A stretch of 62,732 nt of DNA, counting the filler, from Fonticula-like sp. SCN 57-25 (taxonomy: Eukaryota), in assembly GCA_001724245.1 (NCBI GenBank). It is 6 parts of 6 records of this genome, joined end to end, with 100 filler letters (N's around TTAATTAATTAA, not from the genome) between each part and the next. Parts side by side here need not be neighbours in the genome. Positions count along the whole stretch, not along the records: positions 19,454 to 29,055 come from MEDX01000255.1; 5 more parts are not named here. One strand, written 5' to 3'. The notes beneath the pieces are model-generated. The model was given only the letters and a program-made list of their open reading frames with translations, was not told the DNA's origin and made no database searches. Positions within the stretch are counted from its first letter, which is position 1. Each line of letters begins with the position of its first letter. Position numbers and translations under genes: made by a program. Positions 2,760-59,968 of the stretch are shown in pieces.

Positions 2760-3305
2760 TTACTTGACCTTCATACATTCTCGGTATAGGATATCAGAGC
2801 GGGTGTACAAAGTGGCAAACACCGCAAACCCTATGGCGAAAACGATTACCATTATCACGAATGGTAACTTTCGCTCAAAGTGTTTTGCCTTCATGCGCTT
2901 GATTTTATGAGCGAGTTTTTCTTCGAGGTGATCTTGTCTGCACATTTCTATCTCGATTGTGTTAGACGAAAAAGTGTCGTCCACTTTGATTGTAATGTAG
3001 AATCTATTGTCCTCTTCTTGGTAGGTGACACAGGGATCGTCGAATGTTTTGGTGTTGACGACGTAATGATTTATGATGCGAACCATATCTGACGCATCAT
3101 AGGTCGTCTTACGTTGAACTTTGGCAAGTTGGTCAAAATACGGAGAAACCCAGCTAATACCACCTCCAATGGTGAGTACTAGGACGTGAATGGTGCCATT
3201 TGCACACAGTTTGTATTTCTTGTCGAACGACTTTAATTGAAAGTCCCACGTCTTGTCACGGGAGAGTTTGTTGTCGTCGTTGACTTCGATTCGAGTGTAG
3301 CTCAT
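2760..3305 (-). CDS. Hypothetical protein with a C-terminal transmembrane helix
   Basis: 181-aa ATG ORF with hydrophobic LPFVIMVIVFAIGFAVFATLY near the C-terminus. Confidence 0.7.
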   Translation of the reverse strand: MSYTRIEVNDDNKLSRDKTWDFQLKSFDKKYKLCANGTIHVLVLTIGGGISWVSPYFDQLAKVQRKTTYDASDMVRIINHYVVNTKTFDDPCVTYQEEDNRFYITIKVDDTFSSNTIEIEMCRQDHLEEKLAHKIKRMKAKHFERKLPFVIMVIVFAIGFAVFATLYTRSDILYRECMKVK

Positions 3306-5904: not shown

Positions 5905-6444
5905 ATGAAGCACACACAAGAGACGGACTTTGAAGAGATACGCGAAATAGTGCACCGTACCAACCGCGAAGCCCTTACCTTTACAAAGTACGTTCGTTTG
6001 TACTTTGTTCTCGTATTGGTCTTCGCGTTGTTCGCTTGTATCGTAGTCCCGATGGGGTGTTTGTACAGGCAATTGGCTTGTGGACCCACGGAATCAGAGG
6101 AAGCTCACTTCGAAGAGCTGGAGAAAAAGTTCGAAATACAACGCAAAATAGAGGAAGACACGAAACCTGAAATGGAAGCCCGTCAAAAGGAAGAGTGTGG
6201 TATGGCTTGTCCCCCTGGGTCCACGGTGATGCCAGGGTGCTCGTGTTTAGTGCATTCGAAATGCAACACAAAGTGCCCGCGAGGAACGAAACGCACGGGT
6301 GTTTGTGAGTGCGGAGATATTGCAGTTGCAACGTGTCAGTTTTTACCCTGTTTAATGCGCCAATTTTCGAATCACGAGTTTTATGCAAATATCTTTGTAA
6401 TGCCACTCCTTACGGTGTTAGTGTCGTGGTTGAATAGTTTCTAA
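5905..6444 (+). CDS. Cys-rich membrane protein (CPRGTKR family, copy 2)
   Basis: N-proximal transmembrane segment, charged linker, CxxxCP...CxC...CPRGTKR...C and a hydrophobic C-terminus. Confidence 0.75.
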   Translation: MKHTQETDFEEIREIVHRTNREALTFTKYVRLYFVLVLVFALFACIVVPMGCLYRQLACGPTESEEAHFEELEKKFEIQRKIEEDTKPEMEARQKEECGMACPPGSTVMPGCSCLVHSKCNTKCPRGTKRTGVCECGDIAVATCQFLPCLMRQFSNHEFYANIFVMPLLTVLVSWLNSF

Positions 6445-9646: not shown

Positions 9647-9746
9647 NNNNNNNNNNNNNNNNNNNNNNNNNNNNNNNNNNNNNNNNNNNNTTAATTAATT
9701 AANNNNNNNNNNNNNNNNNNNNNNNNNNNNNNNNNNNNNNNNNNNN
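9647..9746. other. Artificial contig linker
   Basis: N44-TTAATTAATTAA-N44, with stop codons in all six frames. Confidence 0.99.
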
Positions 9747-19353: not shown

Positions 19354-19453
19354 NNNNNNNNNNNNNNNNNNNNNNNNNNNNNNNNNNNNNNNNNNNNTTA
19401 ATTAATTAANNNNNNNNNNNNNNNNNNNNNNNNNNNNNNNNNNNNNNNNNNNN
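19354..19453. other. Artificial contig linker
   Basis: N44-TTAATTAATTAA-N44. Confidence 0.99.
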
Positions 19454-23699: not shown

Positions 23700-24133
23700 C
23701 CATTTGGCCAAAACGCGCGCCATTTTGTAAAGTGGGGGGGTTGCCCAGCGTGTGCAAAGTATTCCGCTCTAGGACCACGTGGCCGCATAAATCGAGCCCC
23801 CTATTTATGCTGGTGTGCCAGAATTGCCATAAGTTTCTATATTGAACCGATATAGTTCACTGAAAAAGCTAGTGTTAAGGTACATAGGATACCGATAGAA
23901 CTTACGTATGTAATGGCAGAGAATGTCCTTGCCAAGCAATGGCTCAACGTTGCTCAAGCTTTCTGCTTCTTTCTGCCTGGGATCGTCATCTCTTTGATGA
24001 CCATCAACGCTAATCAATATCTGATGGTCATCAGGGAAACAACCATAAAGTCGCGAAAGAACACACGCACAGTTCACTGTTGCCGTCATCCTCTTTCGCC
24101 TTTCCTGCAAAGCAGAGAGTCAAGTCGGCCACA

Positions 24134-25053
24134 ATGTTTGGCTCGTCGTCAAATAACATGGAGAGTGCGTGGCGCCGTCTCCTTATGAATATTTGATATT
24201 TACCATTTTTTGTTTAGAGCACTTGTTCAATCTTCGGTTCACGGCAAAGCAGCTGAACCGTCTTTCTCTCAAGTGTAACAAGGAGGAGCGCGAAGAAAAG
24301 GTCAAGCTAAAAAAGGTATTGTTGGCTTTTGACCACGATCTATTATTTGGCCTTGCCCGTGTTCTGACGAGTTTTCTCTGTAGGCGCTCCAGAAGGGAAA
24401 TCACGAGGGTGCGCGTATCTATGCCCAGAACGCGATCCGCAAGAAGAACGAGGCTCTCAACTACCTTCGCATGTCTTCCCGCATCGACGCCGTCGCGTCC
24501 AAGGTGCAGACTGCCGTGACAATGAAATCTGTGACCAAGTCGATGGAGGGCGTGGTTGGCCAAATGGACAAGGCGATGAACTCGTGCAACCTCGAGCAAA
24601 TTCAGATGGTCATGGACAGGTTTGAGCAGCAGTTTGAGAACATGGATGTGCAGACGGCCGCCATGGAGGGCGCCATGTCATCCACTACCGCGACTACCAC
24701 GCCGGCCGAGGATGTCGACAGCCTCATCTCGCAGGTCGCTGAGGAGAACGGTACGCGTCAACGACAGTCTTTGTGGTTTCAGTTGTGTGTGGTTATGGTG
24801 GAGACCTTGCCTTCGTCGCTTGATTAAAGTCTGAAAGCGATGAAACTTAGGTTTCCTAGATCTCTTTTCCTTTTTCTTTTTTTTTCTTTCCGTGTCTCGC
24901 TACCTTTTTACTGTTTGTCGCCTTACTAACATGCATGCAGGTCTCGAGGTCAACCTCTCGACACCCAACGCCCCGCTCGGGACGACCTCGACCGCAGAGC
25001 GCGAGCAGGACGAGCTGAGCGAGCGCCTTGCACGTCTCCGCAACGAGCTCTAA
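24134..25053 (+). CDS. CHMP1: ESCRT-III CHMP1/Did2/Vps46 (4 exons)
   Basis: ME(K)[26 protein letters not shown] and the C-terminal MIM1 motif [11 protein letters not shown]. Confidence 0.95.
24800..24863 (+). ncRNA. Candidate intronic H/ACA-type guide RNA, single hairpin with AGA box, predicted target 18S rRNA Psi1415 (yeast numbering)
   Basis: Lower stem 24800-06/24850-56, upper stem 24813-21/24835-43, and pocket strands UUGCCU and AACUU complementary to AAGUU-(U)G-AGGCAA. The AGA lies 14 nt after the upper stem. The rRNA target sequence is recalled, not in the window. Confidence 0.65.
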
Positions 25054-25294
25054 ACTGCACTCGCGCGTTAATTTGTCCTTGTATTCGCCTAGTCGATGTT
25101 GAATTCCCTTTTGTGTGTCTCTTTCCGTTTGCCTGCTTCTTTCGTTATCTTTTCATACGTGTGTATAAAGGTCTGCTATTAATTAATTGAATGAAAGAAC
25201 AACATTTACTGAGGCCGATATCGCTTCCTGGTAAGGGATCTTGGGCTAAAGAGGTCGAAAGGGGGTCAAAGCAATTACTAAATCTGGCCAGCGT

Positions 25295-29055: not shown

Positions 29056-29155
29056 NNNNNNNNNNNNNNNNNNNNNNNNNNNNNNNNNNNNNNNNNNNNT
29101 TAATTAATTAANNNNNNNNNNNNNNNNNNNNNNNNNNNNNNNNNNNNNNNNNNNN
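29056..29155. other. Artificial contig linker
   Basis: N44-TTAATTAATTAA-N44. Confidence 0.99.
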
Positions 29156-40783: not shown

Positions 40784-42304
40784 ATGCTGGACATTAACCT
40801 CTTCCGTGTGGAGAAGGGCGGCAACCCCGACCTCGTTCGCGAGTCGCAGCGCCGCCGTGGAAAGGACCCCAAGACGGTCGACGAGATCATCGAGCTCGAC
40901 AAGGAGTGGGTCGCTGGTACGCCGCAATCACCGCCAATGAAGAAAGGCTCACGTGCTGGCAGCGCGCTTCAACGTTGACGAGCTCAACAAGCAGATCAAC
41001 CAGGTGCAGAAGAAGATTGGCGAGAAGAAGAAGGTACTGGCGCGTTGATGCTCTGGCCATCGTGTTGACCCGTTTTCAGGCCAAGCTCGAGTGCGATGAC
41101 CTGCTCGCCGAGAAGGTGGCTCTTGAGACCAAGCGCAAGGGCCTCGAGGCCGACCTTGACGAGAAGCAGTCCGTGCTCCGCAAGAAGCTCATTGCCATTG
41201 GCAACCTTGTCCACGACTCGGTTATTGTGAGCAACGACGAGGCGAACAACAAGATTGAGCGCTTCTGGCCCGAGGAGCACATTGAGGGGACGCAGGATGC
41301 CACCAAGTTCCACCACTTTGAAGTGCTCCAGATGATTGACGGCTTTGACACTGAGCGCGGCCAGAACATTGCCGGCCACCGCGGCTACTTTTTGAAGAAC
41401 TATGGTGTCCTGCTGAACCAGGCGCTCATCAACTATGGCCTTGCCTTTACGCGCAAGCGCAAGTACAACCTTCTTCAGACGCCCTTCTTCATGCGCAAGG
41501 AGATCATGGCCGAGACCGCCCAGCTCGAGCAGTTTGACGAGGAGCTGTACAAGGTTGTCGCCGGCGACGGCAACGACAAGTACCTGATCGCGACCTCTGA
41601 GCAGCCGATCTCTGCGTTCCACCGCGGCGAGTGGCTCGAGCCCAAGGACCTCCCGATCCGCTACGCCGGCTCGTCCACGTGCTTCCGCAAGGAGGCCGGC
41701 GCGCACGGCAAGGACACGCTCGGTATTTTCCGCGTCCACCAGTTTGAAAAGATTGAGCAGTTTGTCTTTTCCAAGCCCGAGGAGTCGTGGGAGATGTTTG
41801 CCGAGATGGTCAGCACGGCCGAGGAGTTTTACCAGTCGCTCAAGATCCCGTACCGCGTCGTCAACATCGTCTCGGGCGCCCTCAACAATGCCGCCGCCAA
41901 AAAGTTTGATGTCGAGGCCTGGTTCCCGGGCTTTGGCGCCTACCGCGAGCTCGTCTCGGCCTCCAACTGCCTCGACTACCAGGCCAGGCGGCTCGAGATC
42001 CGCTACGGCCAGAAGAAGATGGGCGACAAGGACAAGAAGTACGTCCACTGCCTTAACGCCACGCTCTGCGCCACCGAGCGCGCCCTCTGCTGCGTCCTCG
42101 AAAACTACCAGGAGGCTGATGTGCGCACAATATTCATTTCAAGTGCTGTGAATGCTCACTTTTTTCGCTTTTTTGTAGGGTGTCCGCGTGCCCGAGGTGC
42201 TCATTCCGTTCATGGGCGGCATCGACTTTATCCCGTACGCCTTCAAGCTCCCCAAGAAGCGCGACTGGAAGTCGGACCCGGCCCCGGCCAACGCCTCGGC
42301 CTAG
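40784..42304 (+). CDS. SARS1: Cytosolic seryl-tRNA synthetase
   Basis: [26 protein letters not shown]...[11 protein letters not shown] and ELVSASNC. Confidence 0.97.
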
Positions 42305-42423
42305 GCTGGAGATCAAAAATGATTCAATGTTTACTTGCAATAAATAGTTTCGCCGGTAACAAAGAGCCATATATCGGGCATATTTAAAATTTATTGAATT
42401 GCGCAATGTCTATGATGAATGCT

Positions 42424-44663: not shown

Positions 44664-45161
44664 TGTAAATGTAAAAGAAGAATGATAGACGGCCTTGTTT
44701 GGCGTGCTTGTTTGTGTTGTTTGTGGTCTTTTTATCTTCTTTATAGTCTCTTTTTGATTACCTCTCACCTTACAAGTACATGTATAATACAGATATATAC
44801 ACAGAACACCATGAAGGCACATCAACAGACATACTAACAATATACATACAGTCAACAACAATATCAACCAATATACTTTCAGTTTTCGAAACAGACTTCT
44901 TTGGTAATGTAAAAATGTGAGGGTGCAATGTCCAAAGACACAGCGCCCTTTGCAGGTTGAGAAACCTGCTGAACCAACAACGTCTTAAAAGGGATTTCCT
45001 GTCGGTCAGCAGCCAAACAAACACGAGCGCGGCAAGCAAAAAACTAAACTAAAAACAAGACAAAAAACGCCGTCAAAGAGTACCTTGCCGTACCTTTGCG
45101 GCCACACCGCTCGACCCCTTCCCTTTCGGTCCGGAATCTCGCGCTGGACCGCGGCCGGCCC

Positions 45162-48038: not shown

Positions 48039-49110
48039 ATGGGAGGGAACGATGGCAAGCGCTGCCGTGTGCCGGATCTCAAGACAGTCACCAAGGTGCG
48101 CCGCCTTTCCTTTTGCTTCTCTCTGTGCCTCATTGGTCTGACGCCATGTCTGTAGCGTCGGCGGATGACGCAGTCGCTTTCCGAAGGGATGCGCGGCGTT
48201 CTCATTACGTGCGCCAAGGGCCGCGAGCGGCGATGCGCCGACGAGTGCCTTGATCTCTTTGAAGAAGTGCGCTTTTCCATCATCCCCATGCTTTCTCACC
48301 ATCCTCTTTGCCTTTCCAGCTCACCAAGACTGCGACTGTTCGCCGCCGCCCCTCTGTCGCGCTCGCCATGGAGACCGGCAAGAGCTTCCAGGACATGTTT
48401 GAAGCCGAGCTCGCCGATCTCAAAGCCCCCAAGGCCGCGTCCGATGCCGTGAGCCGCTTCAGCGAAGTCAATGTCCACATGGACTGCGTTGTGTTCATCA
48501 GCTTCCCCGATGACGTCGATCCCACCGCGCTCGTGATGCAGCTCCTCCGCGATGTCGATGCCACCAAGAAGCCGCGCACCGTGCACTGCCTCCGCATGGT
48601 GCCGATCGAGCGCGTCTGCCGCGCCACCGAGTGGTCCGCCTGCGAAGAAATGATCAAGGAAGTCGTTGCCAAGCACTTTACCGCCGACGCGCCGACGTCG
48701 TTCGCCGTCGTGTTCAACTCGCGGAACAGCAGCAACTTTGACCGCGAGGAGACAATCAAAAAGCTCGCGGGCATCGTCGGAAGGCCCCACAAGGTCAACC
48801 TGTCGGCGCCCGAAAAGCACATCATATTCGAAAACATGATGGTACGATATTTGCATGTCTTTTTGTATGCTTTTGTGTGCTAAAAATGCCGTAGGGATTC
48901 GTGCTGTCGAGTGTCGTGGAAGAGTACAACAAGCTGAAAAAGTTTAATCTTACACAAATTGTGGCGCCGATGCCAAAGGACGCGGCGGCAAAGGCGGCCG
49001 AGGGCGCCGCCAAGGAGGCAAAGGAAGAGGCTAAGGAGGCAAAGGAGGAGGCAAAGGAGGAGGCGAAGGAGGCTACGACAGGTAGCGGGGACAAGCCAGA
49101 GAGCGCGTAA
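48039..49110 (+). CDS. THUMPD1: THUMP-domain protein (THUMPD1/Tan1)
   Basis: GMRGVLITC, RMVPIERVC, FAVVFNSRNS, HKVNLSAP and KFNL, with an EAKE-repeat tail. Confidence 0.9.
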
Positions 49111-54685: not shown

Positions 54686-55074
54686 TCTTCAACAACGGGG
54701 TGGGAGAAGGTGCTCGCGGAAAAGGAAGCCGTGCTGCTCGAGGTTCGAGGCAGTGACAACAAGAGGCTAGTGGCTCGAATTACAGAGAGGCACTAGCGGG
54801 GGGGAGTGGGGATCTGATCGCTGCTGGGCCGGCAAAGGTGTGCGGGACGAGCAGGCGAAAGAGATCGCACTGAAGAGGGCGGCAGCGTGGAGATCTGCAC
54901 AATACAATACACCGACGGTGAACAGAAGACAGATGCCCTTTTCCAGCGCGCTGGTACAGCGGCGCTACTTGAGGGAAAAACGGCGTTCTCTGCTTGTGCT
55001 GCAAGGTCAAAGTGGAGCGCGACACGCTTTGGCACGTCAACTTATACGGAGTTCAGTGAACGCCCTGCACGTTT

Positions 55075-55125
55075 ACCACAAGGTCGCTTTTCCCAATTGT
55101 TGACTGGGAAAAGGGACCTTGTGGT
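55075..55125. repeat. 21-bp inverted repeat (1 mismatch, 9-nt loop)
   Basis: ACCACAAGGTCgCTTTTCCCA / TGGGAAAAGgGACCTTGTGGT. Confidence 0.95.
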
Positions 55126-55129
55126 CAAA

Positions 55130-55157
55130 ATGACGTCATAACCCCGTATTGCGCAAT
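55130..55157. promoter_or_regulatory. Adjacent perfect CRE (ATGACGTCAT) and C/EBP (ATTGCGCAAT) palindromes
   Basis: At 55130-55139 and 55148-55157, upstream of the bZIP gene. Confidence 0.65.
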
Positions 55158-59249: not shown

Positions 59250-59968
59250 CTAGTCCCCCTTGCCGCCGCGCCCCGTGAGTGTGCGTATCTCTGCCTCCAG
59301 CGCGAGGCACTGCGCGCTGCATTCCCTGTTGCGCTCCTGTGCCGCGGCCACCTGCGAGTGCAGCTCGCCCCGCTCGCGCTCAAAGTGCACCTGCAGCGTG
59401 TGCCGCGCCTGGCCGAGCGACGCCATTTCGTCCGAGCACGACTGAATCTACGCGGTGTTACGAAAGGCGCACACACGAATGTTTGTGGCGTACCGCCTGC
59501 TGCTTGCCGTGAATGAGCCGCGCGAGCTTGCGAAGCTGCTCTTCGGAGGCGCGCGCGCGCGTTTTCCTGGCGGCGGCCCACGTAGAAAACTCTTGCGCAG
59601 AGGCCAGAGAGCCCAGGCGCGTCCTCAGAGCGTCCACTTTGTGCGCACATGGTGAGCTAGTTTCGCGGTAGTAAATGAGGCGCACCGCGCTCAGTGGCGC
59701 TCGTGAGCTTTGCCTGCAAGTCGGCGACCTGCTGCTGGAGTGGCAGCGTAGCGGTAAACGCGGCGTCGTTCAGCTTTGCAGTGCCGCACAGTTGGGAAAC
59801 ACGACGCGCGCACCTGGTACACACGCTCAGCGCCAAAAAAAAGATAGTCAAAGAATACCTTTGGGCGGCCTCAAGCTGCTCTTCGGCAAGAAAGCGCGCC
59901 TCGCCAAGCGCGCCAATGCGCTCCTGCACAAACGCGTCGTGCTGCAAGACGCCTCCGACGGCACTCAT
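59250..59968 (-). CDS. Hypothetical coiled-coil protein (multi-exon)
   Basis: A/Q/E/L-rich ORF pieces separated by short GT-AG introns. Confidence 0.55.

Follow-up and report, generated by a model that had tools for sequence, protein, structure and literature searches.

The locus analysed here lies within a 62.7-kb stretch of DNA (the window) that originates from a metagenome assembly. It holds a gene of the Snf7 family with four exons, the last of which follows a long intron. The gene and its parts are:

24134–25053, plus strand: CHMP1/Did2 (Snf7-family) host gene, from translation and from its relatives carrying PF03357
24134–24164, 24218–24315, 24384–24750 and 24941–25053, plus strand: exons of the host gene, with the stop codon TAA at 25051–53
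24751–24940, plus strand: intron 3, the last intron, 190 nt, with GT at 24751–52, AG at 24939–40 and the branch-site-like sequence TACTAAC at 24924–30

Translation of exon 3 yields a 122-aa Snf7-family segment. All listed relatives of this exon carry PF03357 and many of them are named CHMP1, Did2 or Vps46, which bears out the identification of the host gene as CHMP1 in the original prediction. The junction of exons 3 and 4, falling between ...EENG and LEV..., agrees with the relatives in a local tblastn comparison. The best named relative of exon 3 is Lithocolla globosa with 76%, followed by chytrids, Mucoromycota and Nuclearia with 63–71%. For the seryl-tRNA synthetase encoded elsewhere in the window (40906–42387), the best named match is Fonticula alba with 70%, and early-diverging fungi come next with ~66%. 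From these best named matches of CHMP1 and seryl-tRNA synthetase, the source is an uncultured protist of the Holomycota, close to the fonticulid/nucleariid lineage, and the opisthokont-like protist assumed before the analysis can be specified as holomycotan. Parts of the stretch are present in 14 sequencing runs, all of which are DNA metagenomes.

Introns 1 and 2 of the gene have 53 nt (24165–24217) and 68 nt (24316–24383). The length of 190 nt for the last intron stands, while the accompanying claim that introns here mostly have about 40–60 nt is weakly backed: in a crude and noisy scan of the window for splice sites and open frames, candidate intron sizes showed a sole excess at 50–69 nt (31 and 24 candidates in the two 10-nt bins concerned), with mostly 10–20 in the other bins. 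All coordinates given in the original prediction were correct on re-reading the sequence. Taken over its whole length, the 190-nt intron shows no unusual degree of structure (z −0.85). Its elements upstream of the branch site are as follows:

24751–24799, plus strand: intron stretch 5′ of the hairpin, 49 nt, free of ANANNA and of any stable hairpin; the centroid structure has only a weak 5-pair helix
24800–24806, plus strand: 5′ strand GGAGACC of the lower stem (stem I), from sequence and fold
24807–24812, plus strand: 5′ pocket strand UUGCCU, complementary to AGGCAA 3′ of the predicted target U-G
24813–21 and 24835–43, plus strand: upper stem of 9 bp with one G·U pair, closed by an apical loop of 13 nt (24822–34)
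24844–24849, plus strand: 3′ pocket strand AACUU (24844–48), complementary to AAGUU 5′ of the predicted target U, and the unpaired A24849
24850–24856, plus strand: 3′ strand GGUUUCC of the lower stem, forming 7 bp with 24800–06, one of them G·U
24858–24860, plus strand: AGA box, 1 nt (U24857) past the lower stem and 14 nt past the upper stem
24861–24899, plus strand: pyrimidine/U-rich tract 3′ of the AGA, unable to form a second hairpin and resembling the pyrimidine-only intron of the related locus L010

The hairpin thus has an internal loop of 6+6 nt between a 7-bp and a 9-bp stem, and the pocket strands, the AGA and the 14-nt spacing lie in the sequence as they had been described. Folding of 24795–24865, which had been proposed as a check, returned the hairpin 24800–24856 with a minimum free energy of −25.3 kcal/mol and a z-score of −4.48; none of 200 shuffled sequences folded as well. 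The minimum free energy structure adds the pairs U24807–A24849 and U24812–A24844, by which the pocket is partly closed to a 4+4 loop. The two wobble pairs are G24815·U24841, the third pair of stem II, and G24803·U24853, the fourth pair of stem I. On a transcript of the complementary strand both would be C·A mismatches, which ties the structure to the intron's sense strand. From the AGA down to the branch site the intron is almost free of purines.

A stable hairpin in a long intron could also have arisen by chance and could match rRNA fortuitously over 11 nt, with no function in trans. At most it would then act as local structure of the pre-mRNA, for example by shortening the distance between the 5′ splice site and the branch point or by modulating the splicing of CHMP1. 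Stability as such is compatible with this explanation, as 0.6% of 2207 GC-matched 71-nt windows, counted on both strands, are equally stable; they fall at some six further sites of the window. Furthermore, a hairpin followed by AGA alone is not rare here, because two other such arrangements were found within 1.1 kb, at 23715–23822 (plus strand) and 24061–23962 (minus strand). Neither of them matches rRNA in the stand-in sequences described below (LSU coverage ~2260 of ~3400 nt), and both were discarded as guide candidates. On the other hand, the G·U pairs on the sense strand and the position within an intron suit an RNA that is processed from a transcript.

The original prediction had seen neither an ANANNA box nor a convincing second hairpin, and both observations hold. 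No ANANNA H box is present in 24751–24799, and the AGAUCU that follows the hairpin lacks the final A. No second hairpin fits into the intron. With 49 nt upstream that form no stable hairpin and a pyrimidine tract downstream, the 190-nt intron cannot accommodate an RNA of the order hairpin-H-hairpin-ACA. In hairpin number and in the H box, the candidate therefore differs from canonical H/ACA RNAs. It agrees with them in the distance of 14 nt between the predicted target U and the box (the rule being 14–16 nt) and in bipartite Watson-Crick pairing of 5+6 bp on stand-in 18S rRNA. The box itself reads AGA, and variants in the middle position of the ACA box are described as rare in fungi (PMC5824354). 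A comparison with Rfam, also proposed beforehand, assigned the hairpin to no family: there were no matches at gathering score across the window, and in 24700–24990, with E-values up to 10, no H/ACA family appeared among the matches, which consisted only of noise (SNORD97 with E 9.5, v-snoRNA-1 and Guanidine-II). The motifs CUGA and CGAUGA inside the hairpin might suggest a C/D snoRNA, but they occur in the wrong order and this reading was rejected.

The predicted target was evaluated on stand-in eukaryotic 18S sequences rather than on that of the source organism, as the window contains no rRNA. The stand-ins were fetched with the 19-nt motif of the original prediction from contaminant eukaryotic rDNA contigs in prokaryotic assemblies, and three of them contain a complete SSU_rRNA_eukarya. 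On all three, the pocket strands pair with 18S rRNA in 11 of 11 Watson-Crick pairs (AAGUU with AACUU and AGGCAA with UUGCCU) with no wobble, leaving U-G unpaired. The unpaired target U is U1410 in stand-in L033 and U1420 in L041 and L038. The 19-nt motif corresponds to nt 1403–1421 of the 1795-nt 18S of L033 and lies inside the full-length SSU_rRNA_eukarya matches. It is exactly conserved in at least 42 contaminant rDNA contigs with mutual 18S identities down to ~75%. Five matches of the motif in viral contigs represent one conserved segment of a phage gene, not rRNA, and were set aside. The Rfam SSU consensus at the site is AAGuuugggGCAA, in which the GA of UUUGAGG is variable. This GA is part of a helix that covaries and is not shared by all eukaryotes in the consensus, so that the 18S rRNA of the source organism may or may not contain the exact motif. 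The expectation that a conserved 18S segment pairs with 5+6 bp around a central U therefore holds exactly for the three stand-ins, but the assumed conservation does not extend to the GA in the consensus. If the hairpin acts as a guide, the 18S rRNA of the source organism is predicted from the stand-ins to contain AAGUUUGAGGCAA.

We take the third U of the motif to be position 1415 of yeast 18S rRNA, which fits both its position at 1410 of 1795 in L033 and the offset of +13 to the G listed as Gm1428. With this mapping, the matched U is one of the 14 known pseudouridines of yeast 18S rRNA. That yeast Psi1415 is guided by snR83, as stated in the original prediction, is confirmed by the table in PMC5699541 and by PMC9045821. 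snR83 is a box H/ACA RNA that targets 18S Psi1290 as well as Psi1415.

How far the rRNA match exceeds chance depends on the conditions applied. For the four registers of this hairpin against 4.2 kb of shuffled rRNA, 11 Watson-Crick pairs were reached in 15 of 5000 shuffles. When G·U pairs were allowed, 11 pairs were reached in 350 of 5000 shuffles and the significance was gone. A loose scan of the window (stems of at least 5 bp, 2236 registers) found four hairpins with at least 11 bp with real rRNA versus ~2.3 hits per shuffled replicate. Matches of this length thus arise by chance across the window, in favor of a fortuitous origin, and because the loose scan shows no signal, the complementarity is significant only jointly with the strong structure. 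The other matches of the loose scan, at 59372 on the minus strand and at 48829 and 12827 on the plus strand, were disregarded, as their stems are weak or they fall within apparent coding sequence. In the set of well-formed hairpins followed by an ANA box (both stems at least 7 bp; 40 boxes, 68 registers), the hairpin in the CHMP1 intron is the sole one with at least 9 pairs. Decoy rRNA produced any 11-pair match in this set in 10 of 300 replicates, and in 2 of 300 when the upper stem was required to have at least 9 bp. The rarity with which stems, 14-nt spacing, ANA box and 5+6 match come together in these decoys argues against a chance hairpin, as does the fact that the matched U is among the few known pseudouridines of yeast 18S rRNA; the latter adds, by our own estimate rather than by computation, a factor of about 30-fold. 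The interpretation as a guide is coherent and statistically respectable, although its basis is a single sequence together with stand-in rRNAs.

For comparison, 18 CHMP1 loci from metagenomes were examined. One of them, L001, belongs to the same organism and ends within exon 3. The original prediction had proposed orthologous CHMP1 introns as a test for covariation in the hairpin. In L010, which is the nearest relative with 83% in its best segment, the intron is present at the same position and in the same phase and consists of 80 nt of pyrimidines without the hairpin, while L011 has no intron at the exon 3/4 position. L016–L018 have long GC-rich introns near this position. No orthologue of the hairpin was found among the 18 loci, and scans of these loci for structure and target (801 registers) yielded no convincing guide for this 18S site. 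Contigs from four metagenomes (X2, X4, X5 and X8) represent near-identical strains; they are short, of low depth and possibly from different strains. X2 has 0 differences over 24782–25100, X4 has 0 substitutions and 2 gaps over 24809–25078, and X8 has 2 differences over 24681–24830, at 24713 and 24789, both of which lie outside the hairpin. For introns 1 and 2, 7 differences are listed for X4 and 5 for X5. None of the four contig sets has informative variation in the hairpin, and neither covariation nor constraint can be claimed from them. Both the lack of a Rfam match and the hairpin-free orthologous intron of L010 are in keeping with a chance origin, which, weighed against the joint rarity of structure and match, we nevertheless consider rather unlikely.

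Because the intron of L010 has 80 nt and no hairpin, the extra length of the intron studied here is essentially the hairpin region. The intron might have been lengthened by the insertion of an inverted repeat, such as a MITE-like element or a transposon footprint: the extra length coincides with the hairpin-containing 5′ part of the intron, and the arms of the hairpin form an imperfect inverted repeat of 22 nt. The hairpin sequence is, however, single-copy in the window and has no second copy in any of the fetched loci, and an asymmetric internal loop with complementarity to rRNA, together with G·U pairs, is no feature of terminal inverted repeats. An insertion of this kind is very improbable.

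The hairpin could also be a real small RNA or the relic of one without being an active guide. It would then represent the decaying 3′ hairpin of what was once a two-hairpin H/ACA RNA or an "AGA-like" RNA that is independent of Cbf5. In a survey of 147 fungal species the shortest H/ACA RNA has 115 nt, from which it follows that all surveyed fungal H/ACA RNAs are of the two-hairpin type (PMC5824354), and AGA-like RNAs of the same shape in trypanosomes are described in the Psiscan paper as not destabilised by knock-down of CBF5 (PMC2613932). The absence of the element from L010 is consistent with this explanation as well. A decaying hairpin would not be expected to keep a pocket perfectly complementary to 18S rRNA and two intact stems, and neither a 5′ hairpin nor an H box has left a trace in the 49 nt upstream. 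Taken together, these points make a relic or a Cbf5-independent RNA improbable.

We propose that the hairpin 24800–24863 is an intron-encoded single-hairpin pseudouridylation guide of the H/ACA type with AGA as its 3′ box. From the sequence at hand this is plausible and, in our judgment, somewhat better founded than its negation. That it is the mature and functional single-hairpin AGA-box RNA of the original prediction is possible, and here we lean slightly to the negative side. By analogy with the rule of the trypanosomatid family (PMC2613932), the mature RNA would have its 3′ end near 24863 and a length of ~64 nt. If the RNA is expressed and processed as proposed, the H/ACA core proteins Cbf5/dyskerin, Nop10, Nhp2 and Gar1 would bind and assemble on the hairpin during synthesis of the CHMP1 pre-mRNA, and splicing and debranching, followed by exonucleolytic trimming of the intron, would release a ~64-nt RNP. 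The strands of the internal loop would then pair with AAGUU and AGGCAA of 18S rRNA, with U-G staying unpaired where the upper stem starts. The target U, at a distance of 14 nt from the AGA, would thereby be positioned in the active site of Cbf5 for modification. The modified nucleotide would be the counterpart of yeast 18S Psi1415, and in function the RNA would be analogous to one of the hairpins of snR83.

In yeast and vertebrate H/ACA RNPs, a two-hairpin RNA is held to be necessary for stable accumulation, and one-hairpin guides are regarded as peculiar to Archaea and Euglenozoa. We tentatively consider that a free-living protist related to Fonticula and the nucleariids makes functional one-hairpin AGA guides that have no H box and are released from spliceosomal introns, a view that may well turn out to be wrong. 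If true, the minimal guide architecture would extend beyond Euglenozoa and Archaea, having persisted or re-evolved in Opisthokonta; it would be a variant of H/ACA guides and not a new kind of system. Validation would mean that opisthokont H/ACA proteins are able to use a minimal RNA, would bear on the question whether the two-hairpin form is the ancestral eukaryotic state, and would back the unvalidated single-hairpin candidates of Ascomycota. Such genes would escape snoRNA-detection programs that require both H and ACA when assemblies of protists or metagenomes are searched. Should the prediction prove wrong, the locus is simply a structured intron.

Among the known systems, the single-hairpin H/ACA sRNAs of Archaea share with the candidate the one hairpin, the 3′ ANA box and the geometry of the pocket. 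The upper stem of archaeal H/ACA sRNAs contains the K-turn or K-loop to which L7Ae binds, whereas none is evident by inspection in that of the candidate. Single-hairpin forms have also been reported from Entamoeba (PMC3542256). Literature searches on snoRNAs of Fonticula and on single-hairpin guides in opisthokonts yielded no report of single-hairpin guides from nucleariids and no paper dealing with the architecture of guide RNAs in Fonticula or the nucleariids.

A close resemblance exists to the trypanosomatid type, and PMC2613932 confirms that single-hairpin AGA guides are the form typical of trypanosomatids and Euglena. The rules derived there from 100 trypanosomatid H/ACA-like RNAs comprise a length of 57–91 nt, a stem I of 5–8 bp, a spacer of 1–3 nt, a distance of 13–16 nt from U to AGA, duplexes of 3–9 bp each and an apical loop of at least 5 nt. 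The candidate fits nearly all of the rules, with a predicted length of 64 nt, a stem I of 7 bp, a spacer of 1 nt, a distance of 14 nt, duplexes of 5+6 bp and a loop of 13 nt. The lack of an H box is common to both, and common descent is not implied. It deviates in the nucleotide before stem I, which is A (or C) by rule and U24799 here, a state that is rare in the trypanosomatid set (PMC2613932). According to the same source, stem II is perfect over 3–7 bp next to the pocket and stem I is usually perfect, which applies to the candidate only if G·U pairs are counted. Trypanosomatid genes of this type occur in polycistronic clusters, with none being intronic (PMC3542256), whereas the candidate is solitary and resides in a spliceosomal intron of a holomycotan host.

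The novelty of such an RNA in opisthokonts had been overstated, since single-hairpin guides have already been proposed for Ascomycota in the form of "conserved intergenic structures 1, 3 and 4" (Gao, Jones & Rivas 2021; PMC8216456). Like the candidate, these structures have one hairpin with a guide-like internal loop, which is conserved in their case, and a single box. They differ in that their box is an H box (ANANNA), in their intergenic position and in the covariation over hundreds of genomes by which they are supported (PMC8216456), whereas the candidate has an AGA box, lies in an intron and lacks comparative support. The same paper describes a Pezizomycotina candidate, #04, as a conserved H/ACA RNA whose host intron belongs to a "vacuolar sorting protein" gene, and CHMP1/Did2/Vps46 is a protein of that kind. 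Candidate #04 is distinct in having two hairpins with H and ACA boxes, a mean length of 177 nt and SSU-743/744 as its predicted target (PMC8216456). That its host, unnamed in the main text, is CHMP1 may serve as a lead.

With regard to the target, the comparison is with snR83. On the numbering that we assume, and with complementarity established on stand-in rRNAs, the candidate is predicted to target the same 18S uridine as one of the two targets of snR83. Neither the single-hairpin architecture nor a guide for Psi1415 is known as ancestral in Holomycota. While snR83 is a two-hairpin RNA encoded by an independent gene, the candidate has one hairpin, is encoded in an intron and has no similarity to snR83 at the level of Rfam. 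In the survey of 147 fungal species, members of the snR83 family were recovered from Saccharomyces only (PMC5824354), and therefore the candidate would be an analogue and not a homologue of snR83.

Beside the main candidate, a hairpin followed by AGA in the last intron of CHMP1 (24800-24860, plus strand), two further hairpins with the same arrangement were found in the window:

23715-23822, plus strand: second hairpin, followed by c-AGA; 108 nt
24061-23962, minus strand: third hairpin, followed by gc-AGA; perfect 13-bp inner stem

The second hairpin consists of an 8-bp lower stem, a loop of 7 + 4 nt and a 10-bp upper stem, with a fold energy of -43.6 kcal/mol (z -1.9). Because four of its pairs are G.U pairs, the hairpin is specific to the plus strand, where it lies antisense within an intron of ~280 nt that belongs to a divergent minus-strand gene encoding a WD40-like protein. 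Its counterpart in L001, a metagenomic CHMP1 locus of the same organism, is 99% identical. Complementarity to rRNA was not found in the stand-in 18S and LSU sequences taken from contaminant eukaryotic rDNA contigs, in which the LSU is only about two-thirds covered. The third hairpin (~-27 kcal/mol) likewise gave no rRNA match in the stand-ins, and the sequence around it reads as the first exon, or otherwise the 5' region, of this minus-strand gene. With it, the hairpin and AGA arrangements total three in 1.1 kb. In the region 24098-24136, only ~33 nt separate the ATG of CHMP1 (24134) from what appears to be the ATG of the divergent gene (~24100). Thus, the 5' transcribed regions of the two genes must overlap, or one tiny bidirectional promoter must serve both.

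Elsewhere in the window, the top GC-matched hairpin is located at 55070-55140 (both strands; -36.9 kcal/mol), with stems of 11 bp and 9 bp and AAA following on either strand. Further strong hairpins occur near 3046-3120, 5958-6030 and 44899-44975. The 440 N of the window form regular 44-nt runs (e.g. 9647-9690, 9703-9746, 19354-19397 and 29056-29099, all within the filler between record parts), which are masked or withheld stretches.

The 19-nt 18S motif that holds the predicted target of the main candidate was found in viral and in prokaryotic sequence collections. Five IMG/VR contigs carry it in part of a gene that is conserved within a single phage group (98% identity across 131 nt); these copies were ruled out as rRNA and represent a chance occurrence. 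In a GTDB-based collection, the motif is carried by contaminant eukaryotic rDNA contigs, which are present in 42 or more genome assemblies of bacteria or archaea; some of these contigs contain complete 18S-5.8S-28S units (L033, L038 and L052).

Among the CHMP1 relatives, two loci of one assembly project, L008 (minus strand 2640-2790) and L015 (minus strand 143-292), have a near-identical segment of ~140 nt in common, which is situated directly downstream of CHMP1 on the opposite strand and contains the C/D-box-like motifs AUGAUAG and CUGA. In the closest relative, L010, another intron (535-672) appears to begin with GC instead of GT and contains a UGAUGA motif. The last intron of L010 (826-905) agrees in position and phase with that of the window CHMP1, but is an 80-nt pyrimidine tract.
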